The position numbers and the translations under genes are program-made. The notes beneath the pieces are model-generated. The model was not told the DNA's origin. It saw only the letters and a list, made by a program, of their open reading frames with translations, and did no database searches. Below, piece after piece: positions 7,210 to 55,200 of a stretch of 64,000 nt of DNA. This stretch comes from a virus, in the IMG/VR virus record IMGVR_UViG_3300033571_024432, positions 52,708 through 116,707 of that record; one strand, written 5' to 3'. How positions within the stretch are numbered: the stretch's first letter is position 1; each line of letters opens with the position of its first letter.

Positions 7210-7854
7210 ATGAATATGAATTGTATTTATAATGTTTCTCCTAATTTAAAAGTTGTTGAATTGAGACAAGATCCGTTGATGATAAATATTACAACGATTG
7301 ATGAAGAAACAGCAGCTGAATTTAGAGATGCCATGTCCATGGCACATAATTCAGGACAAGAAGTTATTCCTATTATTATTGATAGTTATGGTGGTAATGT
7401 TCATAGTTTGTTATCTATGGTTGATTGTATTGTTGAATCTAAGCGAAAAGTTGCTACGATTGTAATAGGTAAAGCATTAGGTTGTGCTTCTATTTTGGCT
7501 GCTATGGGAAACAAAGGTTTACGTTTTGTATCTCCTAATGCATCATTAATGTTAAATAATGTAAGTAAAGAAAGTTGGGGTAAAACTGGTGATTTTAAAC
7601 CTGATAGTAGAGAAGTTGAAAGATTATATAAACTTGTATGTAAAATGCTTGACAAAAATTGTGATAAAGAAGAAGGATATTTTGAATCACTTATCAAAGA
7701 TAAAGGTGGTTGTGATTGGTATTTTGAAGCTTCTGATGCTGTTGATTATAACTTGATTGATCATATTAAACTGCCATGGATGGAAGTAAATATACAACCT
7801 GAATATCAATTTGATAATATTAAATATAAGGAGAATGTCAATGAAATTGATTAG
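7210..7854 (+). CDS. ClpP-fold protein lacking catalytic Ser and His (ClpR-like)
   Basis: IDSYGG, GKALGCA (Ser->Gly), SLMLNN (His->Asn), DWYFEASDAVDYNLID. Confidence 0.85.
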   Translation: MNMNCIYNVSPNLKVVELRQDPLMINITTIDEETAAEFRDAMSMAHNSGQEVIPIIIDSYGGNVHSLLSMVDCIVESKRKVATIVIGKALGCASILAAMGNKGLRFVSPNASLMLNNVSKESWGKTGDFKPDSREVERLYKLVCKMLDKNCDKEEGYFESLIKDKGGCDWYFEASDAVDYNLIDHIKLPWMEVNIQPEYQFDNIKYKENVNEID

Positions 7855-8449
7855 AAATATTTCTAAAAAGATTAAAGAATTAGAGATGAGATTGGCGCCT
7901 GTTATAATTTGTGTTAATGATTTTACAGAAGAGAATGCAAATCAATTTATTAAAGAAATTGGATTAGCACATAACACTGGACAGCCTATTATTCCTGTTG
8001 TAATTGATAGTTATGGCGGTGATGTATATTCATTAGGTCGTATGATTGATGCTATTAAAAATGCAACTTTACCTGTTGCGACTATAGTTGAAGGAAAAGC
8101 AATGAGTTGTGGAGCTATTCTGATGACATATGGAACCAAAGGATATCGTTATTGTAATCAAGATGCAACAGTTATGATGCATGATATTAGTGCTTCATCT
8201 TATGGTAAAATTGAAGAAATACGTAGTTCATTACAAGAAGTTGATAGATTACAAAGTAAAATTTTAGCAGAAGTTGATAGAAATTGTTGTCAGGAAAAAG
8301 GTTATTTTAATAAAAATATTCATGATAAAGGTCGAGCAGATTGGTTTATTAATCCTGATGAAGCTCTTGCGATAGGTATGTGTGATAAATTAGGAAATCC
8401 TAATTTAAATATTGATTTTAAAGTTGACATTTCGTTTAAATTTGATTGA
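7841..8449 (+). CDS. clpP: Clp protease proteolytic subunit, intact triad
   Basis: IDSYGG, GKAMSCG (Ser), VMMHD (His), ADWFINPDEAL (Asp); start moved to ATG 7841 behind AAGGAG. Confidence 0.9.
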   Translation: MKLIRNISKKIKELEMRLAPVIICVNDFTEENANQFIKEIGLAHNTGQPIIPVVIDSYGGDVYSLGRMIDAIKNATLPVATIVEGKAMSCGAILMTYGTKGYRYCNQDATVMMHDISASSYGKIEEIRSSLQEVDRLQSKILAEVDRNCCQEKGYFNKNIHDKGRADWFINPDEALAIGMCDKLGNPNLNIDFKVDISFKFD

Positions 8450-15148: not shown

Positions 15149-18100
15149 ATGTTTTCTAATTTTCAAACACCTAAACAATTTGTAGGACTTCATGCACATT
15201 CACATTTTTCTGTTTATGATGGTTTAGGTTATCCATCTGATCATATTGATTTTGTATTACAAAATGGTATGAATGCGTGGGCTTTAACAGATCATGGTAA
15301 TGCTAATGGTTTAGCACATGCACGCAGTCATACTGCTAAGTTGCAAAAGAAAGGAATTGATTATAGACAACTTTATGGTGTTGAATGTTATTTTGTTCCT
15401 TCTTTAAAAGATTGGGCGTCTGATTATGCAAATCATAAACAAACAATTAAAGATGCTAGAACTGCTGCTGAAGCTGAAAAAATTGCAAAATCTAAGGTTG
15501 ATATTGATGCAGATGATGATGTTGATGCTGGCGGATTAGTAATTGAAGATGAAAATGAATCAAAATCTTTAAATGTAATGGATGATGAATGGAAAAGACG
15601 TTATCATTTAGTTGTATTGGCACGTAATAGAAAAGGTTTATCGAATCTTTTCACAATGGTAAAAAAATCTTATAAAGAAGGTTTTTATAGATATCCTAGA
15701 ATTGATTTTGAAATGTTAAAAGAATTCGGTTCTGATCTTATTGTTTCAACTGCATGTTTAGGTGGTATTTATTCTAATCGTATTTTGAGAGGTGTTGCAC
15801 ATGGTCAATCACGTGATCAAATTCAGAATGAATTAAAAAATTTAACAGATCGTTTTCATCAATATATTGGTGAAGGATTTCATTTGGAATTACAATTTAA
15901 TAAATTAGAAAAACAACATGTTGTAAACGATTATTTAATCGAACATTCTAAATTAACTGGGATTCCATTAATTGCAACTTGCGATAGTCATTATCCAACT
16001 CCTGATAAATGGCAAGCACGTGAAATGTATAAAAAATTAGGTTGGTTAGGTAGCGAATTAAATACAGAATTACCTAAATTTGAAGATTTAAAATGTGAAT
16101 TATATCCTAAAAATGCTGATCAAATGTGGCAAGAATTTAAAACAGCATGGGAAGAATTAGATTTTTATAAAGGTAATGAAGAAATTGTTAAAAATGCAAT
16201 TGAAAGAACATATGATATTGCATGGGAAATGTGTGAAGATACATGGATTGATACAAAAGTAAAATTACCTGTAACTGATTTACCTAATAAAACAACAATG
16301 CAACAATTAACAGAATTAGTTAAAGAAGCTTTAATTAATGAAGGTCTTGCAGATAATCAAATTTATATTGAAAGAGCAAAAGAAGAATTATCTGATATCA
16401 AATACTTGGGGCATGAGGCTTATTTCTTAACAATGTATAAAATTTTTAAGGAAGCAGAAAAACATACATTTTTAGGACCGGGTCGTGGCTCAGGTGCAGG
16501 ATCTTTAGTTAATTATTTATTAGGAATCACTCAACTTGATCCTATTCCTTACAATCTTCTTTGGAATCGATTTTTAGGTCGACATCGTGTAAATTGGCCT
16601 GATATTGATACTGATGCTGGTAATCGTGATGAATTGATTAAAGCAGCACAAAAATTGTTTGGCGAAGAAGCTGTAATCCCTGTCAGCAATTTTAATACTC
16701 TTAAATTAAAATCATTAGTAAAGGATATTTCAAAGTTTTATAATGTTCCATTTGAAGAAGTTAATGCAGTAACAGGTCCATTACAAGATGAAGTAATGTA
16801 TCATGCGATGGATGAATCTATGGAAAAATCTGTGTTTGTTCTAAAACATGAAGATTGTATGGAATATAGCACGCGTTATAAAGAATTTATGGAAAAATAT
16901 CCAAAAGTAGAAGAACATATCAGAACATTATTTACTCAAAATAAATCTATTGGTAGACATGCAGGTGGCGTTATTGTAGCTGACCCTAAAGAGTTAGAAC
17001 AAACAATGCCAATGGTTGGTGTACGTGGTGAATTACAGACGCCATGGGCTGAAGGTCTTAACTTTCGAAATTTAGAAGATAATGGTTTTTTAAAATTTGA
17101 CTTTTTAGGTTTAACATTATTACGTGATGTTGAAAACTGTATTAACAGAATCTTAAAAAGAGAGAATAAAAGAAAAGCAACATTTGAAGAAATTAAAAAG
17201 TTTTTTGATGAAAAATTAAATTGTCGTTATGTTAAACAAGATGATTTAATTGTATGGAAACATGTTTATGAAATGGGACATTTTACAGGTATTTTTCAAT
17301 TTGCACAAACAGGCGCACGTAATTTTGCAATGGAGGCTAAACCACAAAATATTGAAGATTTAGCAGCTGTTACAGCAATTTATCGCCCAGGCCCTTTAAA
17401 GGCAAATGTGCATAAAAAATATGTAAAAGCTAAAAATGATGCAATGATTAAAAAACCAAAATATGCGCATCCTGTAATCGAAGAAGTTTTAGGACCTACA
17501 TATGGATTTATTGCATTTCAAGAACAATTTATGTTATTAGCACAAAAATTAGCAGGATTTAGTCCTGCAGAAGGTGATAAGTTACGTAAAACGCTTGTTA
17601 AGAAATCTGTTGAAAAATTAGATGCAATTTATAAAGAAAGGCAAGATGCTCGTGAAAAATTTATTAAAGGTGCAAAAGAAGTAAGTAATGTTCAAGAAAG
17701 TGTAGCAATTGGTTTATGGGAAGAAATTGATTTTTTTGCGCAATATGGCTTCAATAAATCACATGCTGTTGCTTATGCAATTGATTCATATTACGCTGCA
17801 TGGTTACATACACATTATGAAACAGATTGGTTATCTACAATTTTAGAAACAGAAAAAACAGATCCTGCACGTATGGCAAAAGCTATTTCAGAAGTTAAAT
17901 CTTATGGATATAAATTTAGTCAAATAGATGTAAATTATTCTGGTGATGAATGGTATTATTCAAATGATTTAAAGGCTTTTGTTCCTCCTTTATCATCATT
18001 AAAAGGTACAGGTGATAAAGCTGTTGAAGAAATTATGAAATATAGACCATATAATAATTTAGAAGAATTATTATATAATGAAAATGGTGAATGGAAACAT

Positions 18101-18730
18101 TCAAAAATGAATAAAGCTTCATTTGGTTCATTATGTAAAATGGAAGCATTTGGTTCATTAGAAGAAATGAAGAATGGGCATATTGCAAATCATAGACAAT
18201 TATACGATTTAATCATTGGAAATTATGACACTTTGAAAAAAGGAAAATATGGAATAACAGATGCAGCACGAAAAAAGATTGAAAAAAGAGGTGAACAACC
18301 ACAATTAATTATTGATGTTTTATTATCAGATATATTACAGGATCACTCAGATTGGTCACGTACGCAAAAGATTAGTAATCAATTCGAACTTAGTTCTAAT
18401 TCATCAGATGAGCTCCTGTATCCATCTGAGTTAATTGATAAGTTAAAAAAGCAAGAAATACCTAGCGCATTAACATTACCTGAAGGTAAGTTTGTTGCTT
18501 GGTTCTGTATTATGGATGGATTTGAAATTAAAAAAACAAAAAATGATAAAAATTTTATAAAAGCTGCAGTGTCAGATAATGAAGGAAATATTAGTAAAAT
18601 TAAAATATGGGGTGACATAGATACAAATGATTTTGCATATACAGTTTGGATAGCTGAAGTGAATATGCAAGCAGATTGGGGATTATCAACTAATTCTTTT
18701 AAAATGAAAAGGGTTACTATTTTTGATTAA
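15149..18730 (+). CDS. dnaE: DNA polymerase III alpha subunit (family C)
   Basis: PHP LHAHSHFSVYDG/TDHG/CDSH; GRGSGAGSL; PDIDTD; KFDFLGL; FNKSHAVAY. Confidence 0.97.
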   Translation: MFSNFQTPKQFVGLHAHSHFSVYDGLGYPSDHIDFVLQNGMNAWALTDHGNANGLAHARSHTAKLQKKGIDYRQLYGVECYFVPSLKDWASDYANHKQTIKDARTAAEAEKIAKSKVDIDADDDVDAGGLVIEDENESKSLNVMDDEWKRRYHLVVLARNRKGLSNLFTMVKKSYKEGFYRYPRIDFEMLKEFGSDLIVSTACLGGIYSNRILRGVAHGQSRDQIQNELKNLTDRFHQYIGEGFHLELQFNKLEKQHVVNDYLIEHSKLTGIPLIATCDSHYPTPDKWQAREMYKKLGWLGSELNTELPKFEDLKCELYPKNADQMWQEFKTAWEELDFYKGNEEIVKNAIERTYDIAWEMCEDTWIDTKVKLPVTDLPNKTTMQQLTELVKEALINEGLADNQIYIERAKEELSDIKYLGHEAYFLTMYKIFKEAEKHTFLGPGRGSGAGSLVNYLLGITQLDPIPYNLLWNRFLGRHRVNWPDIDTDAGNRDELIKAAQKLFGEEAVIPVSNFNTLKLKSLVKDISKFYNVPFEEVNAVTGPLQDEVMYHAMDESMEKSVFVLKHEDCMEYSTRYKEFMEKYPKVEEHIRTLFTQNKSIGRHAGGVIVADPKELEQTMPMVGVRGELQTPWAEGLNFRNLEDNGFLKFDFLGLTLLRDVENCINRILKRENKRKATFEEIKKFFDEKLNCRYVKQDDLIVWKHVYEMGHFTGIFQFAQTGARNFAMEAKPQNIEDLAAVTAIYRPGPLKANVHKKYVKAKNDAMIKKPKYAHPVIEEVLGPTYGFIAFQEQFMLLAQKLAGFSPAEGDKLRKTLVKKSVEKLDAIYKERQDAREKFIKGAKEVSNVQESVAIGLWEEIDFFAQYGFNKSHAVAYAIDSYYAAWLHTHYETDWLSTILETEKTDPARMAKAISEVKSYGYKFSQIDVNYSGDEWYYSNDLKAFVPPLSSLKGTGDKAVEEIMKYRPYNNLEELLYNENGEWKHSKMNKASFGSLCKMEAFGSLEEMKNGHIANHRQLYDLIIGNYDTLKKGKYGITDAARKKIEKRGEQPQLIIDVLLSDILQDHSDWSRTQKISNQFELSSNSSDELLYPSELIDKLKKQEIPSALTLPEGKFVAWFCIMDGFEIKKTKNDKNFIKAAVSDNEGNISKIKIWGDIDTNDFAYTVWIAEVNMQADWGLSTNSFKMKRVTIFD

Positions 18731-23837: not shown

Positions 23838-24770
23838 ATGATGAATAGCATTTCAAAACTAAATAAACCTATTGAGAATAGTTATTGGGTAATACCTAAT
23901 ACATTTTTAGCTGCAGAATATCCTAGAACAATTGATGAAGATGAATCACATGAAAAAATAAAAAACATTTTAAAATCAGGTATTACATGTTTTGTTGATT
24001 TAACTGATGATAAGCATTTAAAAGAATATGAATATATTATCGATAAATATAAAAAAGAATATCCAGGTGTTAAAAGAATCAATTTTAAAATAAAAGATGG
24101 ATATACACCTAGTGTTGATTTTATGGATCAAATTTTAAATAAAATTGACGAATTATTATGTAATGGCGAAAAGATATATCTTCATTGTTGGGGCGGAATT
24201 GGAAGAACAGGTACTGTTGTTGATTGTTGGTTACATAAAAATGTTAATGGAAGAATTAATAATAATGTAGGTAAAAATAATTTTACAGGAAAAGTTGAAA
24301 GTGATCTAAATTTAGTTAAATTATGGTGTACTAATTTTAAAGCACTTAGAAAAAGAGAACCTAAAAAACCAACGAATCATAGACAAAGAATATTTGTAGG
24401 TAATTGGATTGATGAATATATCAAAAATAATAAATTAAATCAAACACATTTAAATGTAAATGAAGTTTTAAATAGAAATATAAATTTAGATTTAAATAGT
24501 TTAAATGAAAATTTATATAAAAATCTGATAAAAATTATTGATATTATGAATGTAAAAATAGAAGATAAAGAGTATTTTTGTCAAAATGTATTATTAAATT
24601 TACTTAAAAAATACAATAAAGTAAATATTGAAACGCAAAATTTTTCTTTAATTTTTCAAAATAAAAATAATGATTTTATAACTTTAAAATTTATAGATTT
24701 AAAAGAAAACAAAAAAATAAATACTTTTTTGTTTTGCAGTAATGGATTTAGACAAATAGAAGGTTTATAA
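23838..24770 (+). CDS. Protein tyrosine/dual-specificity phosphatase family protein
   Basis: CX5R loop HCWGGIGRTG; SYWVIP N-terminus; general-acid loop IKDG. Confidence 0.9.
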   Translation: MMNSISKLNKPIENSYWVIPNTFLAAEYPRTIDEDESHEKIKNILKSGITCFVDLTDDKHLKEYEYIIDKYKKEYPGVKRINFKIKDGYTPSVDFMDQILNKIDELLCNGEKIYLHCWGGIGRTGTVVDCWLHKNVNGRINNNVGKNNFTGKVESDLNLVKLWCTNFKALRKREPKKPTNHRQRIFVGNWIDEYIKNNKLNQTHLNVNEVLNRNINLDLNSLNENLYKNLIKIIDIMNVKIEDKEYFCQNVLLNLLKKYNKVNIETQNFSLIFQNKNNDFITLKFIDLKENKKINTFLFCSNGFRQIEGL

Positions 24771-26401: not shown

Positions 26402-27133
26402 ATGTTTGATAAAAAATTAGAAAATTTAGTTAAACAAAGCGTTATTAAAACAATGAATGAAAATAACGTTTTATTAAAAAATAGTAATATTAAAAATGAA
26501 AATGAAAAAAAATTAAATGAAGCATATGTTGCACAACCAACAAACTTTAATTTAAATACTGAATTGTTATCAGAAAAAACAAAAATAGCCCATCAGGAAT
26601 TATTTGAAGGTTATATAAAAGAATTAAATACTGTTTCTGCAAAATTAGATACAGCTGATCGTGAAAATGTTAATCCAAATAATAGTCAATTTCGTTCTTT
26701 AAAATTAGATGAAATACATAATCATAATGCTTCATTTTTACACGGTTTATATTTTCAAAATATAAGCGATGTAAATAGTGAAATAACAGCAGATAGTTTA
26801 GCATTTATGAGAATTGAAAGGGATTTTGGAAGTTTTGATTTGTGGCAAGAAGATTTTATTGCTTGTTGTATGTCTTCAAGAAATGGTTGGGCTATGACTG
26901 TATATAGTTCAACATTAAAAAGATATATTAATACTATAGTAGATTTACATGATCAACATGTTTTAATAAGTTCTTTTCCTGTAATTGTTATGGATTGTTG
27001 GGAACATAGTTATTATAGAGATTATTTAAAAAATAGAAAAGCCTATGTATATGGTATGATGAAAGAATTAAATTGGAATGTCATTGAAGAACGTTTCAAA
27101 ATAGCAGATAAAATAGGAGCTTTAATTAAATGA
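26402..27133 (+). CDS. sod: Fe/Mn superoxide dismutase family protein with N-terminal extension
   Basis: Ligands KIAHQ, FLHGLYF, DCWEHSYY; RDFGSF; GWA; LNW. Confidence 0.9.
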   Translation: MFDKKLENLVKQSVIKTMNENNVLLKNSNIKNENEKKLNEAYVAQPTNFNLNTELLSEKTKIAHQELFEGYIKELNTVSAKLDTADRENVNPNNSQFRSLKLDEIHNHNASFLHGLYFQNISDVNSEITADSLAFMRIERDFGSFDLWQEDFIACCMSSRNGWAMTVYSSTLKRYINTIVDLHDQHVLISSFPVIVMDCWEHSYYRDYLKNRKAYVYGMMKELNWNVIEERFKIADKIGALIK

Positions 27134-40853: not shown

Positions 40854-42506
40854 ATGAGCGATTTTTTATTTTTTGATATTGAAGCACAACAACATTTAAG
40901 AGTAGGCGTTGAAAAATTATATAAGGCAGTTTCTCAAACAATGGGACCACATGGCAAATTAGCATTAATTGAAAGAATGGGAAAACCACCTCATTTAACA
41001 AAAGATGGTGCTACAGTTGCAAAAAATGTAAAATTATCAAATCCTATTGAAAGTTTAGGCGCGTCATTAATCAGACAAGCAAGTGAACAAACTGCGCAAA
41101 CAGTTGGTGATGGATCTACAACAGCAACAGTCCTAACAAGAGAATTATACAATAAATCAATTCAAGCATTACAAACTGGTATTATTTCTTCAAATGAAAT
41201 GTCTAAATTATTAAAAAGTCGAGTTGAATTATTAGTAGAATATTTAAACGAAAACGCTCATAATATTTCAACTAATGAAGAAATTAGACAAATTGCAGCA
41301 GTATCAGCGAATGGAGATACAAAAATTGGTGATCTGATTGCACAAGCAATTTCAGAGGTAGGTTCTGCAAAATTAGTAACTGTTCAAAAAAGTAAAACAA
41401 CTCAAACAAATCTACAATTAGTAAAAGGTGTTAGAGTTGAAAGAGGTTATATTTCTCATTATTTTGCGAATGGTGAAGAAAGAAATAAATGTACATTAGA
41501 AGAACCTTTCGTATTAATTTTGAATTGTAAATTAAATTCTTTGTCTCAATTAATTCCTGTTTTAGAAAAAGTAGCAGCTTCAGAAAAAAGTATTTTAGTT
41601 ATTGCAAATGACTTTGAAGATGAAGTAATTCAAGCTATGATTACTAATGTAACAAGAGGCGCATTAAAAATTTGTGCAATTAAATCTCCTTTTTATGGCG
41701 AAAATAGAGCACAAATTCTTCAAGATTTGGCTGATTCATTACATAGTAAAGTGTTAAACGAAATTGATGAAAAGCAAATTAAAAATTTAAATTTAAACGA
41801 TTTAGGAACATGCAAATCTGCAATCATTTCTAATAATGAAACATTACTTGTTGAATGTGGTAAAAATAATGTTAAGAAATCAAAAGAAACAAATACCGGA
41901 GAAAGTATTAAACAAATTGACGTTTTATTACAAAACAAAGATTTATCAAAAGAAGAAGAATCATTTTTAAAACAAAGATTAGTTATTCTTAAAGGTGTAG
42001 TTGCTGTTTTATCAATTGGGGCATATACTGAAAGTGAATTACTTGAAACTTTTGATCGTGTTGATGATGCTTTACATGCAACAAAAGCTGCGATGGATGG
42101 AGGATTTTTACCAGGTGGTGGTTTATCATTATTACGAGCTGGTCAATTTTTAAGCAATATTGAATGTAGTGATTTAAAACAAAAAACTATAAATAAAATT
42201 GTTGCAGATGCTTGCATTTCACCAATGAGACAAATTTTAAAAAATGCAGAATTATCATCAGATTATATTATTGAAAAAATAAAAGATATTAATGATTTTA
42301 ATTATGGATATGATATTAGTAATGGAGAATTTTGTAATTTAATTAATGCAGGTATAATTGATCCATTACATGTTTCGATTACAGCATTAAGAAATGCAGC
42401 ATCATCTGCTTCATCATTAATAAATATTGGATGCGTTATTTTAGATAATCCACAAGAATATCAACAAGATGTTCAAATGGTGCAATTAGATGAAAATATG
42501 GAATAA
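40854..42506 (+). CDS. groEL: Phage GroEL-like chaperonin
   Basis: TMGPHGK, TKDGATVA, VGDGSTTA, SANGD, DDALHATKAA, PGGG, GIIDP. Confidence 0.95.
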   Translation: MSDFLFFDIEAQQHLRVGVEKLYKAVSQTMGPHGKLALIERMGKPPHLTKDGATVAKNVKLSNPIESLGASLIRQASEQTAQTVGDGSTTATVLTRELYNKSIQALQTGIISSNEMSKLLKSRVELLVEYLNENAHNISTNEEIRQIAAVSANGDTKIGDLIAQAISEVGSAKLVTVQKSKTTQTNLQLVKGVRVERGYISHYFANGEERNKCTLEEPFVLILNCKLNSLSQLIPVLEKVAASEKSILVIANDFEDEVIQAMITNVTRGALKICAIKSPFYGENRAQILQDLADSLHSKVLNEIDEKQIKNLNLNDLGTCKSAIISNNETLLVECGKNNVKKSKETNTGESIKQIDVLLQNKDLSKEEESFLKQRLVILKGVVAVLSIGAYTESELLETFDRVDDALHATKAAMDGGFLPGGGLSLLRAGQFLSNIECSDLKQKTINKIVADACISPMRQILKNAELSSDYIIEKIKDINDFNYGYDISNGEFCNLINAGIIDPLHVSITALRNAASSASSLINIGCVILDNPQEYQQDVQMVQLDENME

Positions 42507-42789: not shown

Positions 42790-43575
42790 ATGTCAAATAT
42801 ATTATCTGAATATCAAGAAATTATTAAATCAAATCCTTTACTTTCACGTGAGCAAGAAGTAATTCTGGCTAAAAAAATTAAGGAAGGTGATTTAAATGCA
42901 AAAAATAAAATGATTGAAAGTAATTATAGATTAGTTATTAATATGGCTAAAAAATATTATGAAAACAATAAAAATTTAGATTTTCGTGATTTAATTGCTG
43001 AATCTCAATTAGGTTTATTAAAAGCAATTGAAAGATTTGATTATGAAAAAGGTTTTAAATTTTCCACTTATGCTTGTTGGTGGATTAAACAAGCATTAAT
43101 GAGTTTTATTAATGACTCTTCATGTTTAATTAAAACACCTCAAAACAATAGAGTTATTTCTTCAAAAGCAAAAAAAATAAGAAAAGAATATTTAGAGAAT
43201 TTTGGTTATACACCTGATAATTCAGAAATTGCAGATATTTTAGGTATTTCAAATACAACATTAAATAATGTCGAAAAAAATTCTCTTAAAATTATTTCAA
43301 TTGATGAAGAATTAAATTCTCAAAGTAATAATTCTTCATCAGATGCAAAGAAAACAAGTATTGGAGATGTTATTCCATCTAATGAATCATCACAATATGA
43401 CAAGATGGTAAATCAAGAATTAAGAAAAATATTAATTGATTCTTTAAAATTACTTAGTCCTAGAGAAGAAAAAATATTAAGATTAAGATTTGGATTATAT
43501 TCAAGTGATGATGACATTGATAATTTTCCAATGACATTAAATGAACTTTTAACATTAAACGCAAGAGATAAATAA
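42790..43575 (+). CDS. Sigma70-family (RpoD/RpoS-like) factor truncated before region 4.2
   Basis: Region 1.2 LLSREQE; region 2 SNYRLV, DLIAES, KAIERFD, FSTYACWWIKQA; region 3 SIDE; region 4.1 LSPREEKILRLRFGL; stops after MTLNELL. Confidence 0.92.
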   Translation: MSNILSEYQEIIKSNPLLSREQEVILAKKIKEGDLNAKNKMIESNYRLVINMAKKYYENNKNLDFRDLIAESQLGLLKAIERFDYEKGFKFSTYACWWIKQALMSFINDSSCLIKTPQNNRVISSKAKKIRKEYLENFGYTPDNSEIADILGISNTTLNNVEKNSLKIISIDEELNSQSNNSSSDAKKTSIGDVIPSNESSQYDKMVNQELRKILIDSLKLLSPREEKILRLRFGLYSSDDDIDNFPMTLNELLTLNARDK

Positions 43576-43576
43576 A

Positions 43577-43867
43577 ATGACAAAAAGAAAAAGAAATGTA
43601 TCAGTTGCAAATACAACAGGCTTGTCATATACAGAAATTAGTAAAATTATGACAGATTCAGGTGATAAAATGAATCATAATAATGTTAGAGCAATTATGA
43701 TTAAATCTTTTGCAAAAATTGCTGATCATATTGGTAAATTTTATAATGTGTATCATGATAAAGAAAAATTAGAAAAAATTGTAATTAATGCAAGTTTTCA
43801 AAATAATATAATTGAAATATTAAAAGAAGAAATTTTAATAAAAGAAAACGAAAAAGGTAAAAATTAA
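43577..43867 (+). CDS. Stand-alone HTH resembling sigma region 4.2
   Basis: GLSYTEISKIM...NHNNVRAIMIKSFAKI aligns with the xTLEEIG...TRERVRQIExKAxxKL pattern; starts 1 nt after sigma stop. Confidence 0.65.
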   Translation: MTKRKRNVSVANTTGLSYTEISKIMTDSGDKMNHNNVRAIMIKSFAKIADHIGKFYNVYHDKEKLEKIVINASFQNNIIEILKEEILIKENEKGKN

Positions 43868-44529
43868 TGACTGTAAAAAAAATATTGATTTATCCTAATG
43901 ATAAACTAAAACAAGCAGCAAATAAAAGTGAATTGCAAGTAGATACTTTGAGAAATGTTATTAAAGATTTGTTAGACACAATTAGGCATTATGAAGGAAA
44001 TAAATTTTTAACAACAACGCAAATTGAATCTTCTGAAAATATTGCTATATTTGATTTACAAATGATTTATTCTAAAATGTTCAGAAATGATGAACGATTT
44101 TTAATAATTGCAAATCCTGAAATTCTTGATAAATCTAATGAAACAATTTGTATTCAGGAAACTTCTGGTTCAACACCGTTTTTTCAATGTGCATCAACAA
44201 AAAGTAAAAGTGTAAAAGTAAAATTTAATATTGTTAAACTAAAAGAACAAGACACAATTGAAAATGAAAGTCAAAATGAAAATGATGTTTCAATTATTAA
44301 AGGTTTAGATATTAATGATTTTACTTTTGAAGAACAAACTGTAACATTTTGGGATGATATGTCAATCGTAATGCAGTCTGCTATAGATCAATTAAATGGT
44401 AAATGTTTTTTAGATAATTTATCTTGGTTTAATAAATCTAGATATATGAAAAAACATAAAAATCAACTTAATTCATTCAAAAAATTGATTAAAAAAAATA
44501 TGTTAAGAGGCTTTGATAATTTAAAATGA
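43867..44529 (+). CDS. Peptide deformylase-fold protein, catalytic motifs lost
   Basis: KILIYPNDKL, IIANPEIL, KSVKVKF, QSAIDQLNG..F.D.L; EGCLS->ETSGS, HExDH->SAIDQ. Confidence 0.8.
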   Translation: MTVKKILIYPNDKLKQAANKSELQVDTLRNVIKDLLDTIRHYEGNKFLTTTQIESSENIAIFDLQMIYSKMFRNDERFLIIANPEILDKSNETICIQETSGSTPFFQCASTKSKSVKVKFNIVKLKEQDTIENESQNENDVSIIKGLDINDFTFEEQTVTFWDDMSIVMQSAIDQLNGKCFLDNLSWFNKSRYMKKHKNQLNSFKKLIKKNMLRGFDNLK

Positions 44530-45546: not shown

Positions 45547-46512
45547 ATGTTTTCAATTAAAGGTTCTTATAAATATCTTTTCGAAAGTGAAGAAGAAAAA
45601 AAAGAAAATAAAAAAAAATCAATGTCTAAAATTAATAAAAAAAAATTATCTAACTTGTTTAAAAAATCATATCCTGAATTTGTTCCTGCTTTAGCAGAAT
45701 TAACTAGTAATGATAAATTTATGAATTCTTTAGAAGGCGATGGACAAGGAGAAGATAAATTAGTTATTGAAACAAAACAAATAAGATGTAAGGATTTAAT
45801 ACCATTACAAAATGAAATAGGTGCATCTGAAAGTTTGGATTTTCCTTTAAAAAATAGATTACCTATTGAAAAAATTATAAAAATATGCAGTAATGAAGTA
45901 TGTGATGAAAATATATATGACAGTAAAGGAAGATCAATTATAACATCAGGTGGAAAATATATAGTAGATGGTCATCATAGATGGTCATCAATTTTTATAT
46001 TAAATCCAAATTGTATTATTGAAGTAAAAGATATTGGTACATATAAAAAAGGTGTTGATGCATTAAAATTATCGCAAATAATAATCGCTACTTTATCTAA
46101 ATTAAAAGGAACTATGCCATCTAAAAAGGCAAAAGGTATAAATATAATAAAGGCTGATCGATCAGAAATAATGAACTATATAGCAAATGAAATAACAAAT
46201 GATTTTATGTTAAACTATATTAAATCTATTAATTTAAACAAAATAGGAAATAGAATATTATTAAGTAAAAAATTTCAAAATAAAGCAGGTATTATTAGAT
46301 TTATTACAGCAAATTGTATGCTTTTACAATCAAATGGAATCGATTCTGAAGCTGAATATAATGATAGAAATTTAATGCCACAATTTGATGATTCAGGACA
46401 ATACTTATCAAGAGCATCTGATGGTGAGGTTAATTTAAGTGATATTAGACTAGCATTGGATGAAAATAAATTGCAATTAAATAAATGGAAAAAATTAGCG
46501 GGTTTATTATGA
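45547..46512 (+). CDS. ParB/sulfiredoxin-like domain protein
   Basis: DLIPLQNEI, IITSGGKYIVDGHHRW; leader YKYLFESEE; C-terminal KWKKLAG. Confidence 0.75.
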   Translation: MFSIKGSYKYLFESEEEKKENKKKSMSKINKKKLSNLFKKSYPEFVPALAELTSNDKFMNSLEGDGQGEDKLVIETKQIRCKDLIPLQNEIGASESLDFPLKNRLPIEKIIKICSNEVCDENIYDSKGRSIITSGGKYIVDGHHRWSSIFILNPNCIIEVKDIGTYKKGVDALKLSQIIIATLSKLKGTMPSKKAKGINIIKADRSEIMNYIANEITNDFMLNYIKSINLNKIGNRILLSKKFQNKAGIIRFITANCMLLQSNGIDSEAEYNDRNLMPQFDDSGQYLSRASDGEVNLSDIRLALDENKLQLNKWKKLAGLL

Positions 46513-47031: not shown

Positions 47032-47160
47032 ATGATAAAATTATTACAGGATATTTTAACAATTGTTTTGTTAATATCAATATTTTTTATTATATTCATT
47101 TATATTCTATTAGAAGATGTAATTATTAAAATAAAACAAAAATTAAAGGTTAAAAAATAA
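47032..47160 (+). CDS. 42-aa single-TM protein (missed by ORF track)
   Basis: MIKLLQDILTIVLLISIFFIIFIYILLEDVIIKIKQKLKVKK; its TAA overlaps the next ATG. Confidence 0.4.
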   Translation: MIKLLQDILTIVLLISIFFIIFIYILLEDVIIKIKQKLKVKK

Positions 47161-48887
47161 TGATAAAAATTACTTATATTTTTTTTTTAATGATATTATT
47201 TTCATGCACAAATTCTGAAAAATCATTAAATTTAAACTTAAAAGCAGAAAAAAAAGATGTGACATCTGGAGAAAATTTAAATATAAAATATGATATAAAT
47301 GAAGATATATCTACAATAAAAGCAGCATTAATTTCAGAAAACGGTAGAACAATTGAAATATATAATAAGCAAAACGCTAATGGTATATTTACAATTAGAA
47401 GAATTTTTTCAAATTTAGATAAATTAAATTATTCAAAAAATAATAAAATAGAATTTTTAGGCTTTGATAAAAATAATAATATAATTTTATCTGACGAAAT
47501 CAATATTAATTTAAATCCTTCAATAGTTATTAAATCACTTTGTGCAACTAATAATTGTGATACATTAACAGGTAATGTTATTGGAGATTTACCACAAAAA
47601 ATTAAAATAGAATCTTTCGGCTTTCAACCAATTAAATATAAATATATTGTTAATACTAAAAAAGAAAGTATTACATTTGAACATTCATATAATACACCTG
47701 TTTCTGATGATTATTTAGATAATATAATTTGGGAAAAGCCTTCAAATAATGAATCTTTTTATTTAACATCAATTATTATAATTGTATCAGATATTAATGG
47801 TTTTGAAGTTTTAAATGCTTTACCTGTTAAAGTTGTTAGACCTTTAGAAATAAGATATGACGGAACTTATGAATTAGCACAAACTTTCGAACCTGTGCCT
47901 GTATCAGGCTGTATTACAGGTTCGATTGATAATAGAATTGATTATAATGAAAGTAAATCAGAAACTCGTGAGAATTCAATTGATATATCAATTAGCAAAG
48001 ATTGGAATAAATCAATTGGTTTATCTGTATCACAGGAACTCACAGAAGGTATTCAAATTAGTCAAACAATAGGGAATTCCATTTCTTCATCTTCTGAACA
48101 ATCTGAATCAACTGAGAATGGTTGGGAGACGTCTCAATCAAAATCTAGTTCTAATGAATTTAATTGGTCAACATCAAATGGCGAAAGTTGGGAATTTAAT
48201 AATTCAAATTCAATTGGCAATTCACAAACTAATGAAACGCAAAATGAAATTAATGGAAGTGTAACTGTTGGTGTAGAAGGAGAAGGTAGTTTACCATTTT
48301 TAGGTAAAATTGGTGGAAATGTTTCAACAACAGGTGGCGTTAGAAGAGGATGGAATAATGCAAATACTAATTCTACTGAACAAACACGAGGATATAGTAT
48401 TAGCGGAAATTCTGAAAAGTCACAATCATTTGGATCTGTACAAACTGATGAAGCGACAACTGGATTAAATGGAGCTTATGTAGTAGGTAAGTCATTCTCT
48501 AATTCAATTGAAACTGCAGAGGAGCAATCAAATACTCGTGTTTGGGATATGACAAATGGCACATCTCAAGAAAATGTAGTATCTGTTGGTAATGCTGAAA
48601 GTATTAGTAAAACACAAACAATTTCAACAAGTGTGACAACATCATTAAACTTTTCAGTATTTTTGCCTAGAAATAGAAAAGGAATATTTTATCGTCAGAC
48701 TAGTCGTTGGATTAGAGAGATTAAGATTATTACATATGATTTGAATGGAACACCTAAATTGGCAGGTAAAATGTTTGCTAATGAATGGAATTGGGCTGTA
48801 TCAATGTCTATTGGTAATTCATGCCAAGAGATTAGTAAACCTAATAATATGGATATTGCAAGTTGTTATATTGAGCCATGTTTTTAA
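47160..48887 (+). CDS. Lipoprotein with Ser/Thr-rich aerolysin/ETX-MTX2-like C-terminal region
   Basis: Lipobox-like MILFS-C; amphipathic GSVTVGVEGEGSLPFLGKIGGNVSTTG; SVFLPRN; fold call is inference. Confidence 0.55.
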   Translation: MIKITYIFFLMILFSCTNSEKSLNLNLKAEKKDVTSGENLNIKYDINEDISTIKAALISENGRTIEIYNKQNANGIFTIRRIFSNLDKLNYSKNNKIEFLGFDKNNNIILSDEININLNPSIVIKSLCATNNCDTLTGNVIGDLPQKIKIESFGFQPIKYKYIVNTKKESITFEHSYNTPVSDDYLDNIIWEKPSNNESFYLTSIIIIVSDINGFEVLNALPVKVVRPLEIRYDGTYELAQTFEPVPVSGCITGSIDNRIDYNESKSETRENSIDISISKDWNKSIGLSVSQELTEGIQISQTIGNSISSSSEQSESTENGWETSQSKSSSNEFNWSTSNGESWEFNNSNSIGNSQTNETQNEINGSVTVGVEGEGSLPFLGKIGGNVSTTGGVRRGWNNANTNSTEQTRGYSISGNSEKSQSFGSVQTDEATTGLNGAYVVGKSFSNSIETAEEQSNTRVWDMTNGTSQENVVSVGNAESISKTQTISTSVTTSLNFSVFLPRNRKGIFYRQTSRWIREIKIITYDLNGTPKLAGKMFANEWNWAVSMSIGNSCQEISKPNNMDIASCYIEPCF

Positions 48888-50331: not shown

Positions 50332-51246
50332 ATGCCAGTTTCTTTAGGTTATGCATGTATTAATACATTATTACCATCAGCAAATTCTACTATGCGTAAA
50401 GCAACATTTGATCAAAAAGGTATTGAATATGCAGGTGAAATTGCTTTAAAAAATTTTAATGCTATTATTCCAATAATTGAATGGAATAACAAAAATAATA
50501 TTAGATTATATAGAATGTCATCAGATATGATGCCATGGGCATCTGAATACAATATGGAAGATTTACCGCAGTTTGATGAAATAAAAAAAGTATTATATAA
50601 AATTGGTGAATTATCTAAATTGTATAATCAAAGATTAACATTTCATCCTGGACAATTTGATTGTTTAGCTTCTGATAATGAAAATGTTATTAAAAATACT
50701 ATCATAGATCTAGAAATACATGGAAAAATAATGGATTTAATTGGTGTTTCTAAAACACATTATAATAAAATAAATGTTCATTTAGGCTCCTCATGTGGCG
50801 GAAATCATAAATTAGCAATGGACAATTTTTGTAGAAATTTTGATAAGTTATCTGAATCTGTTAAATCTAGATTGACAATTGAAAATGATGATAAAAAAGG
50901 TATGTTTTCTGTAAATATGTTGTATGAAGGTGTTTATAAAAATATTAAAGTGCCTATTGTTTATGATCAACATCATTGGGAATGTGGACCTCAAGATCAA
51001 TCACAACAAGATGCATTTGAGACTGCATATTTGACATGGGATAAAATAAAACCTGTTTGTCATTTAAGTAATAGTAAAAAAGAATATGAAGATAATAGCG
51101 TTGTAATAACAGCACATTCAGATTATATTTATAAACCATTTAATAATTACGATCTTGATGTTGATGTTGTTGTTGAGGCAAAAATGAAAGAACAAGCTGT
51201 TTTAAATTATTTAAAGAAATGGGATACAAATGGAAAAGAAAGATAA
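50332..51246 (+). CDS. uvsE: UV damage endonuclease
   Basis: LGYACIN, YRMSSD, RLTFHPGQF, RLTIENDD, YDQHH, AHSDYI, VEAKMKEQA. Confidence 0.95.
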   Translation: MPVSLGYACINTLLPSANSTMRKATFDQKGIEYAGEIALKNFNAIIPIIEWNNKNNIRLYRMSSDMMPWASEYNMEDLPQFDEIKKVLYKIGELSKLYNQRLTFHPGQFDCLASDNENVIKNTIIDLEIHGKIMDLIGVSKTHYNKINVHLGSSCGGNHKLAMDNFCRNFDKLSESVKSRLTIENDDKKGMFSVNMLYEGVYKNIKVPIVYDQHHWECGPQDQSQQDAFETAYLTWDKIKPVCHLSNSKKEYEDNSVVITAHSDYIYKPFNNYDLDVDVVVEAKMKEQAVLNYLKKWDTNGKER

Positions 51247-52235: not shown

Positions 52236-55200
52236 TTGAATAAAAATCAAATAATAAATGAGATGATAAAAATTGAATTATTATATCGTAAGAATCAAAG
52301 GAAAAAAAAATTAAAATTTTTAAATGAATCTAGTGAATCCAATGAATCTTCTGAAGATATTAATACTAAATTTTGGAATAATTTTTTTGATACTAATTTT
52401 ACTGATTTTTTAACTAAATCTAAATTAATTTTGTCTTCTTATAATTTAATTTTACAAAAATTAAATGATATAGGTAATCAATTTGTGCAAGGAAATTCAT
52501 TGAATATTGAAAAAAGTAAATTTGATGAATTTAAAAGTATATTATCTACTTGTTTTGATGAATCTCATTTAAATATAAAAAATGATTTTATCGATAATAT
52601 TTTAAAAAACAACAAACAACCCGGCAATATTATGAAGTTTTCATTAGAAATGCCTAATAATATTTCTGAAAATATGTTTGATATTAATTCAATAGATGAT
52701 GACTCAATAAATAAATTATATAATTTATATAATTATTTTAATATTAATGAAAAAAGTTTAGGGAATAATATAAGTTTATTTGAAATATTATCTAGAAATA
52801 TTTTGTCTGATTTGACTTTTAAATTAGAACATGCAATAACTAAAAAATTAGTAGGTAATGTTTTTCAAACTAGTAATCCTATTACTATACAAATGTGTAA
52901 TATAATATCTAATAAATTACGTAATTGTAATTTACAAGAAAATCAAGTAGCAGAAGTATGTAATAAATTATTTACAAACAATTTAAGTATAGATAATTTT
53001 TCTTCAATTTTTAAATTTCCTTTTTCAGCATATAATAAAGATGATTTGCAAAAAGATAATAGTCCATTATTTAAAAAATTATCTGATAAGAATTTTAGAA
53101 AAAACTTTTACGCCAAAACTATTTATAATGTTGTAGCGCCTAGCGGAGCAACTAATTATAATACAGGTAAAGGTGAATTTTTATTATTATCATTATTGGA
53201 TAATTTTACATCTGGTGGAAGTAGAAGTGTAGATTTAATTTCTAAGGATAGATCTTTTGAGGTTGAAGTAAAACAAGTTGTTGAAAAAGCAGTGGCGGGT
53301 TCTTCTGATAAGGTTATTCTTTCAACTAATTCTAAATTTAGAATATCTTTAAGACAAAATAAAAATTCTACAAAAACAAAAACAAAGTTTTTCGATAAAT
53401 TTAATGATTTTGTTAAAAAGTTTTCTCAAAATACAAAAGGTATGAATAATTTATTAAAATTAACTGATCAATTGGAAACAATTGCTTTTAATGAAAGTAC
53501 AATGTTATTAAATGTAGGCAAAGATTATGGTCCAAGTCCTGCACAAACATCTGATAGCGATATTTCTAGATTATTAGATATTGATGAAATTGACGCAGCA
53601 AAAATAAAATCAATTATATCTTATAGTGGAAAACCAGCTGATTCAGCTGTTAAAGAATTTGTTGTTGCTTTGGATAAAGAATATGCAAATTATGCCAGTG
53701 CTCCTGGATCTAAGCAAGCTAATAATAAAATTACACAAGCACTTGCTAATCTAGATGGTCAAGGTAAATTTATTACAAATCAAAAAATAGATTTAGATAA
53801 TGTCAAAGGTTTATTTGATTGGTTTAAGGCAAAAACGCCAGAAGATTTAAATAAATTAAAAAATAGTAATAAAAAGTTTTTTTTATTTAATAGTTTAGTA
53901 GGCACAAATGGTACTATAAAAGGTGGAACTATATATGATGAAAAAAATCCTACTCATAAAGAATATGAAAAATGTTTTGTATCAGCATATGATGTATATA
54001 AAAATCTTAAAAAAAGTGTAGAAAGTTTAAATATATATGGAGATTTAACATCTTTGAATGATATTACATCTACGCAAATTGATATATTAAATGTTTTCTT
54101 TTTTAATAATATTGTTAATAAATATTTAGCATCATTAATGTTATACAATGATTTTTTAAACAATATGTCTAAAAATTTTGAAAATTTAACTAATAATGTT
54201 TTATCTAGTAATAATGAACAAAATGAAATAAATAAATTATGGGCAAATATAAAATTTGATGTTGTAAATAAGATAAAGGAAATGAATTTATCAAATTTAG
54301 ATTTATCAGAACTTAAAGATCCTTTACAAAAAGAAACATTTAAAGATTTATTAAAATACAAAGTATTTACAGAATTTTCAGAAAGTTTAGGACTTAATGA
54401 CGAAGAAATAATAGTCACATTTAAACATTTAGATTCAAATAAAAAAGTTAAAAGTATAAAAAAAGTGATAAATAAAATAAATCCAGATAATTTAAATGAT
54501 GAAAATAATGAATTTAATATTTTAGAGCCAAATGCAATTACAAATATCGATCAATTTTTTAATGATAAAAATAATAAACAATTTACAATAAAAATAAATA
54601 ATGATGAATTAACAGACGAACAAATTGAAAATATTTTAAGTAATAAATCAATGTTTTCATTCTTTTCTAAAAGTAATTTGACTAAAAAAGAAAATGATAG
54701 TGATTTAAAAGTAGTAGAACCAATAAATAATGATAATGATTTAAAAGTTGTAGAACCAATAAATGATTCATTTATTATAAAAAATAAAAACATATTAAAA
54801 GAAGATTTTGAAAAATTAATTAATGAAAAAAATAAATATATTATTGATTATTTAGATGGTGTAATAAAAACATTAATAGAATTACATGAAAGTATTCAAG
54901 AAGATTATTCTAAAAATGCTGTATTAATATTAAGTGAAGAAGATTCTGAATCTTTTAATCGTTTTAGAATTATGTTTGGACCAAATAATAAAACAAATTA
55001 TAGTGATATTAAATCTGATGATGAAGTAATCGAAAAATTTGCATCTGGAAAAGCTCTTTTTATTACAAGTATAAAACATAATGAAATAGTATTAATGCAA
55101 AATCCAGAAAGTGAAGCTGATTCTTTTGAAAAAAGAAAAGACGTTATACTTCTTTATAGATTTTTAAAATTAAAAAAAGATTTAAATGCAACAATTAATG

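Follow-up and report, generated by a model that had tools for sequence, protein, structure and literature searches.

Peptide deformylase (PDF) is essential in bacteria and a target of antibiotics, and few viral auxiliary genes are as abundant as phage PDFs. The locus treated here raises the question of what a phage does with a member of this family in which the residues needed for deformylation have been replaced. The gene lies in a stretch of 64,000 nucleotides, in the following called the window, which runs from base 52708 to base 116707 of an IMG/VR virus record; the record is 116.7 kb long and has a CheckV completeness of 44%. The DNA of the window has about 23% G+C, and the + strand carries nearly all genes. 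A contig of 219 kb encodes a protein identical to the PDF-like protein of the window, and the source is therefore a giant phage. Other genes recognized by Pfam in the window code for a DnaE-type PolIII alpha subunit (15149-18730), a dual-specificity phosphatase (23838-24770), a protein with an Fe/Mn superoxide dismutase domain (26402-27133) and a UvdE UV endonuclease (50332-51246).

Family, active site and fold

The gene and the three stretches which correspond to the catalytic motifs of PDF are:

43867..44529, + strand: gene of the PDF-like pseudo-enzyme, 220 aa (open reading frame, PF01327, AlphaFold2, Foldseek)
43987..44022, + strand: degenerate motif 1, residues 41-52, HYEGNKFLTTTQ (alignments to solved and active PDFs)
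44158..44172, + strand: degenerate motif 2, residues 98-102, ETSGS, with Ser100 in place of the metal-ligand Cys (alignments)
44374..44400, + strand: degenerate motif 3, residues 170-178, QSAIDQLNG, with both His ligands and the catalytic Glu gone (alignments)

A preliminary description of this DNA, made from the letters alone, had placed the gene at these positions and had taken the product for a homologue of PDF; the reading frame is found at exactly this place, on the + strand, with 220 aa. The Pfam family PF01327 (Pep_deformylase) matches the protein with 73.7 bits (E=1.7e-20; cut-off 22.8 bits), phmmer finds 28 sequence matches among solved PDFs, and the PHROG family "peptide deformylase" gives a weak match. 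In the phage's own record, which is 44% complete, the PDF-like gene is the only match to PF01327, and a search of the same record for MetAP and formyltransferase found neither.

In the PDF of E. coli the metal is coordinated by Cys90, His132 and His136, and Glu133 acts as the general base (PMC12690207). For the motifs, phmmer alignments to solved PDFs were set beside alignments to 83 active PDFs drawn from a full-library search. In motif 1 the sequence GIGLAAPQ has become G-N-K-F-L-T-T-T-Q, which is one residue longer and retains only Gly44 and Gln52; Phe47 and one extra residue stand at the position of the second Gly. Motif 2 is changed from EGCLS to ETSGS, the Cys ligand being replaced by Ser100, and motif 3 from QHEIDH to QSAIDQ, with Ser171 for the first His, Ala172 for the Glu and Gln175 for the second His. 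The active PDFs of the outgroup carry the Cys in 82/83, the first His in 83/83, the Glu in 81/83 and the second His in 82/83 of the sequences. In the clade to which the window protein belongs (see below) the changes of Cys to Ser and of the second His to Gln are found in 11/11 rows, while the first His is replaced by S, A or R, the Glu by A or V and the Gly of EGC in motif 2 by Thr, Ser or Asn. The claim of the preliminary description that all three motifs are altered is confirmed by this comparison at the level of single residues. Since all three metal ligands and the general-base Glu are lost, the protein, judged from its residues, cannot be a deformylase. By descent and by fold it belongs to the PDF family, and its sequence would place it outside the deformylase enzyme class.

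Sporadic degenerate PDFs were also seen among the canonical relatives in the outgroup (P0041, P0057 and P0048); two of these have Ala for the catalytic Glu and one has Ser for the Cys together with Tyr for the second His.

Two further features set the protein apart from a standard PDF fold:

44242..44319, + strand: clade-specific insert, residues 126-151, which caps an extended beta-hairpin (model, alignment)
44425..44523, + strand: long basic C-terminal helix, residues 187-219 (model, phmmer, tail statistics)

The AlphaFold2 model, made with 94 aligned sequences, has a mean pLDDT of 90.3 and a pTM of 0.83. When it was compared to the PDB with Foldseek the top matches were all type 1B PDFs, with probability 1.00 and target-normalised TM values of 0.79-0.90, and included the enzymes from E. 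coli, Vibrio, Legionella, Pseudomonas and Ehrlichia. The alignments cover about 200 columns and take in the C-terminal helix (E. coli, Vibrio and Legionella PDFs). The fold, on which the preliminary description had staked its reading, thus came out as that of PDF. The most divergent relative (P0010, 35% identity) was modelled separately with a pLDDT of 91.1, and the core, the arm and the helix match those of the window protein; its arm strands are at residues 115-127 and 146-161 and its terminal helix has 30 residues.

The hairpin following motif 2 is lengthened in the model, with strands at residues 115-125 and 152-162, and the insert between them (residues 126-151) is modelled as low-confidence coil with pLDDT 56-79. 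From residue 121 to 163 the protein has 43 aa with a net charge of -8, against 14-15 aa in active PDFs, so that the acidic insert of about 25 aa proposed earlier is real. In the whole clade this region comprises 42-57 aa, against the same 14-15 aa in the actives, with a mean charge of -7. The first half of the insert is acidic and variable; it is followed by a conserved stretch (E/D)-V-x-V-I and by h-x-F-x-x-F-x-F.

The C-terminus is modelled as one single helix of 33 residues (187-219; pLDDT 93-95), which comprises the basic stretch FNKSRYMKKHK that the preliminary description had pointed to as a C-terminal helix. In phmmer alignments residues 165-200 pair with PDF residues 127-162, which hold eta-3 and alpha-3, and by this pairing the first half of the helix is homologous to alpha-3 of the type 1B enzymes. 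Behind motif 3 the clade has a tail of 36-48 aa with a mean charge of +10.3, compared to 29.8 aa and +6.2 in the actives. Within the helix region of the clade S186 and K195 are invariant and the patterns LSW(F/Y)N(K/R) and FKK are conserved.

The resemblance to a type 1B PDF such as E. coli Def extends to the fold, the order of the secondary structures and the N-terminus. The structural residues that survive are those of the INPE strand, Gln in motif 1, the leading Glu in motif 2 and, in motif 3, the Q..D.L.G frame; the eta-3 turn is kept as well, and so is the type 1B trait of an alpha-helical, basic C-terminus behind it (187-219 here, 186-215 in P0010). Unlike type 1B enzymes the protein lacks the metal ligands and the catalytic Glu and has one more residue and a Phe in motif 1; its clade has an insert of 28-43 aa in the form of a long beta-arm, and a C-helix which is about 12 residues longer and more basic.

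Descent and selection

The relatives of the protein were found in two steps of different depth. A word-indexed search gave four close relatives with 47-80% identity; the clade members P0002-P0004 have 77-81% identity. An exhaustive phmmer search added the representatives P0006-P0010 with E values from 1e-51 to 4e-22. The clade comprises at least seven sequence clusters of 1-5 members, with identities down to 35%, and its members are found only on contigs from uncultured phages or metagenomes. The replacement of motif 1 reads H-(Y/F)-E-G-x-x-F-(L/I)-T-x-x-Q in every member, that of motif 2 E-(T/S/N)-S-x-S and that of motif 3 Q-(S/A/R)-(A/V)-x-D-Q-L-(N/D)-G. Ser100 and Gln175, which stand for the Cys and the second His, are invariant across the clade, and the reading frames are intact in all members.

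A maximum-likelihood tree was calculated from 94 sequences, in which the actives were the 83 nearest only. In this tree the clade is monophyletic (SH-aLRT 99). No inner branch is longer than its stem, which measures 1.02 changes per site, the median being 0.09, and the sister of the clade among these 83 nearest actives is the type-1B-like active PDF P0013. Monophyly together with the longest inner stem indicates a single loss of catalysis and a burst of change, followed by conservation. The mean pairwise column identity in the clade is 0.41 for the whole protein, 0.71 for motif 1, 0.60 for motif 2, 0.54 for the motif 3 helix, 0.65 for the eta-3 linker, and 0.39 and 0.23 for the first and second half of the C-helix. 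The best-conserved parts are the altered motifs, i.e., the segments of the former cleft, with motif 1 the highest.

DNA of three relatives was used (L003-L005). Pairs at 38-49% identity are saturated and were left out of the dN/dS analysis, and the single informative pair is L004 versus L005, in which the PDF-like genes are 90% identical. For this pair dS is 0.356, dN 0.051 and dN/dS 0.145 (non-neutral, p=1.7e-11), and the neighbouring genes have dN/dS values of 0.045-0.09. The gene is under purifying selection, slightly looser than that on its neighbours. The neutral decay among homologues that was to be looked for according to the preliminary description is not what was found, since the altered motifs are in addition invariant down to 35% identity, and the reading of the protein as a pseudo-enzyme is strongly supported by the PDF fold, the lost catalytic residues and the purifying selection. 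We regard it as nearly certain that the protein is a working pseudo-enzyme. That it is a non-catalytic, selectively maintained descendant of a type-1B-like PDF which arose once in AT-rich giant phages is strongly supported.

A comparison of the L004 and L005 loci gene by gene shows that dS varies about 100-fold. It is lowest in the 120-aa gene (0.015) and the 574-aa gene (0.04), reaches 0.33-0.36 in the ParB-like and PDF-like genes and 0.82 in GroEL, and exceeds 2 in sigma-N. This unevenness points to mosaic recombination.

The distribution of the clade was followed in several collections. Two scans of viral contigs with the clade alignments gave no further relatives. A scan of contigs from 185,579 prokaryotic species gave no clade members, and therefore neither a prophage copy nor a clue to the host. 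The collection of isolate phages contains no clade members, the best matches being PDFs at 24-28% identity, and in BFVD there are viral PDFs only at 15-18% identity to the protein. Scans that started from P0012 and P0013, the nearest active PDFs, found only distant viral PDFs and did not reveal an ancestral locus.

The characterised viral PDFs, from Vibrio phage Vp16, cyanophage S-SSM7 and the marine "type 4" group, have all three motifs, are active and have no ribosome-binding C-terminal helix (PMC5591237). They share with the window protein that they are phage-encoded members of the PDF family; in motifs, activity and helix everything is reversed. The accessory "type 3" PDFs, which are weak or inactive, comprise the second PDFs of Staphylococcus aureus and Streptococcus pneumoniae as well as archaeal and trypanosomatid proteins (PMC12690207, PMC5591237). 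These resemble the window protein in having substitutions in the catalytic motifs and yet being retained in genomes. They differ from it in that the window protein is phage-borne, has all three motifs changed and branches beside the active P0013 in the tree with the 83 nearest actives. The literature searched on phage, jumbo-phage or pseudoenzyme PDFs gave no description of a phage pseudo-PDF.

A separate lineage of dead PDFs was found on six IMG/VR viral contigs (L018-L023) with about 30% GC. These proteins have 190 aa (e.g., L019, 670-1242), match PF01327 with 32.7 bits, carry TG(V/I)VFNASD, FEKDTN and QRAIDAING in the places of the motifs and end in GRNERVMLQGP; downstream of their genes are small ORFs and a 248-aa ORF of unknown family. 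Like the window clade they are phage-encoded PF01327 homologues with all motifs replaced; unlike it they are 190 aa long, have no beta-arm insert and have a different, non-helical type of C-terminus. An assignment of the window clade to this QRAIDAING lineage was considered and rejected, 26 residues around motif 3 being what aligns (E=0.007).

The split sigma genes

Upstream of the PDF-like gene lie a chaperonin gene and a sigma factor in two pieces:

40854..42506, + strand: GroEL-type chaperonin, upstream of the sigma genes (PF00118, E=2e-54; syntenic in L003-L006)
42790..43575, + strand: N-part of a sigma-70-type factor with regions 1.2, 2, 3 and the start of 4 (Pfam r1_2, r2, r3, r4; phrog_351)
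43577..43867, + strand: 96-aa ORF with a region-4.2-like helix-turn-helix, the second piece of the split sigma (sequence; orthologues in L003-L005)

The order in the window is FEN-type exonuclease, GroEL, a 61-aa acidic ORF, sigma-N, the 96-aa sigma-C and the PDF-like gene. The N-part ends ahead of the helix-turn-helix of region 4.2, and a Pfam search with the 96-aa ORF gave no matches. One base separates sigma-N from sigma-C, and the stop codon of sigma-C overlaps the ATG of the PDF-like gene in TAATG at 43865-43869. The order GroEL, sigma-N, sigma-C, PDF-like gene is common to L003, L004 and L005, which together with the window represent three subclades at 38-49% identity. At the junction between sigma-C and the PDF-like gene the two reading frames overlap by 1 nt in the window and by 11 nt in L004 and L005; in L003 they are 3 nt apart. 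Genes directly 3' of the PDF-like gene vary between the loci; further along, the ParB-like gene, the 120-aa gene and the 575-aa gene are also kept in L003-L005.

Two IMG/VR phages of higher GC (L006 and L007) have GroEL and a two-piece sigma as well, with a sigma-C that is 38% identical, followed by an unrelated 148-aa ORF. A search of their records, which are 27% and 38% complete, gave no match to PF01327, and a split sigma can therefore do without the PDF-like gene. The synteny is region-wide, and with the arrangement in these two phages this means that adjacency alone cannot establish a functional tie. The preliminary description had proposed that the pseudo-enzyme is translationally coupled to the split-sigma genes; the geometry of the junction stands and is conserved in three loci, whereas the functional link is weakened by the region-wide synteny and by L006 and L007.

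Because the split is kept in the three related loci and in the distant lineage of higher GC, it is genuine and does not stem from an error of sequencing. The two pieces are found at 42790-43867 in the window, 4212-5293 in L003, 6596-8011 in L004, 6584-8011 in L005 and 4179-5234 in L006; the sigma-C piece has 94-105 aa and its own helix-turn-helix (GLSY.EIS..MT..GDKMNH), and the N-part runs through region 4.1. In L004 (6596-7495) and L005 (6584-7507) the N-part carries a long acidic C-terminal tail, which in L005 contains tandem DDDIVE repeats; the window and L003 are without such a tail. Among isolate phages the nearest sigma is that of Microcystis phage MaAM05 (40.6% identity), which is unsplit and has no PDF-like neighbour, and searches with PolIII-alpha and sigma among cultured phages found no close relative. 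A scan for promoters and terminators was uninformative at 23% GC: promoter-like sites are fewer than in shuffled sequences, and the stretch from sigma to the PDF-like gene contains no terminator.

Some other genes of the region and of the phage should be mentioned. The window codes for two overlapping tandem ClpP homologues (7210-7854 and 7811-8449, both PF00574 with about 80 bits), one of which had in an earlier sequence reading been described as being without the catalytic Ser and His. There may be two pseudo-enzymes in the protein-handling set of GroEL, the ClpP pair and the dead PDF. A 321-aa protein (45547-46512) has a weak ParB-like signal (DGHHRW motif; phrog_2859, E=3e-5); its gene is present in all related loci and overlaps at the 3' end a conserved 120-aa ORF. 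The 575-aa protein (47160-48887) is rich in Ser, Thr and Asn, has a lipoprotein-like N-terminus and no Pfam match. It is clearly alignable in all four loci (8080-9810 in L003, 10496-12220 in L004 and L005), with 99% identity between L004 and L005.

What the protein may do

The C-terminal helix of E. coli PDF (residues 147-168) is the primary ribosome anchor; it lies between uL22 and bL32, against the 23S helices H24/H47, and overlaps the MetAP site (10.1101/312850; 10.1101/2022.04.20.488877). The reading we favour, at a probability of roughly 45%, is that the window protein is a non-catalytic binder of this exit site. Its helix would bind next to the exit tunnel of the ribosome, in the place which alpha-3 takes between uL22 and bL32 and on H24/H47, and the docked protein would act without chemistry. 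It might compete with the host PDF and MetAP, which would alter N-terminal processing during infection; or it might be an exit-site adaptor or holdase, in which the remodelled cleft and the acidic arm touch nascent chains or a phage partner.

The one ground for placing the protein at the exit site is that the C-terminal helix is retained, longer and more basic. The known viral PDFs have kept the motifs and have no helix; here the helix is kept and the chemistry discarded, which makes docking the candidate for the selected function. The presence of GroEL and two ClpP homologues, a protein-handling set, in the same phage also speaks for the docking reading. The conserved cleft and the (E/D)VxVI and FxxFxF elements of the arm suggest that something else may be bound too, and this second partner could be nascent chains or a phage protein. 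Several observations speak against docking. An amphipathic helix of this length and Lys content could have other nucleic acids or proteins as its targets, and the conservation of its first half is about that of the protein average and that of its second half lower still. Conservation is strongest in what was the active-site cleft, a part that a pure site-blocker could do without, and the conserved abutment on the sigma genes offers another partner. A more specific version, in which the dead PDF would be a dominant-negative deformylase that docks by its longer helix and displaces host PDF and MetAP, we hold to be somewhat improbable. Were it true, the phage would control N-terminal formyl/Met processing and hence fMet-dependent degradation or maturation, maybe jointly with its GroEL and ClpP.

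The gene order leads to a different proposal, which we consider unlikely: the scaffold of PDF would have been taken over to assemble, bridge or regulate the two-piece sigma or would serve RNA polymerase, with the basic helix or the acidic arm contacting DNA, RNA polymerase or the sigma pieces. The succession sigma-N, sigma-C, PDF-like gene with overlapping or near-abutting codons is found in 4/4 loci with DNA, these loci span the three subclades, and as the 3' neighbours vary the constant neighbour is sigma. The synteny, however, extends from GroEL to the 575-aa protein and makes the adjacency unspecific, and L006 and L007, whose incomplete records lack PF01327, have an unrelated ORF after their split sigma. 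Longer, fused forms were looked for and not found, which counts weakly against the proposal. To our knowledge no PDF-fold protein is known in transcription, and this also counts against it. The pattern of conservation could instead be explained if the protein were a non-cleaving reader of N-terminal (formyl-)Met peptides, whose cleft shields or sequesters N-termini and for which ribosome docking is optional. All three cleft-lining motifs are conserved above the protein average, Q52 and E98, which correspond to Gln50 and Glu88 in E. coli, do not vary, and the Ser at 100 and the Gln at 175 are fixed and not random. Such conservation is equally explicable by location in the fold core, and the Gly of EGC has become Thr, Ser or Asn. 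The metal which binds the formyl oxygen is gone, and motif 1 has an inserted residue and Phe47 at the backbone-pairing Gly, in the strand that pairs with the substrate; for these reasons fMet recognition in the style of PDF appears unlikely, and the reader as a whole is given a rather small chance.

About as small is the chance that the scaffold has been reused for a partner that is neither ribosome nor sigma, such as the phage chaperonin, a Clp protease, a host defence or a virion protein. The two arm elements resemble a new interaction surface and the very long stem branch suggests a shift of function; no particular partner is indicated, however, and the retained and lengthened PDF-type C-helix is left unexplained. 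Hardly any weight is given to a decaying relic or to a deformylase still active by way of other residues, even though some bacterial PDFs with imperfect motifs still work (PMC12690207). A decaying pseudogene was rejected on the dN/dS value and the intact ORFs in every member. A still-active enzyme was rejected as all four catalytic positions are occupied by non-ligand residues and there is no alternative conserved set of Cys and His, C108 and C180 not being invariant.

The clade can be seen as a natural separation-of-function variant, in which the chemistry has been discarded and the docking-type helix kept and lengthened. If binding to the exit site is true, the protein would be the first example from a virus of a factor shown to compete for the platform on which nascent chains are processed, and it would be a tool for studying the traffic of PDF, MetAP, trigger factor and SRP on the ribosome. 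Several members of the clade have been named "peptide deformylase" automatically, and since pipelines use this name for such proteins, non-enzymes are counted among the viral PDF "auxiliary metabolic genes". The occurrence of dead PDFs in unrelated phage lineages suggests that a non-enzymatic use of the PDF fold has been selected repeatedly.
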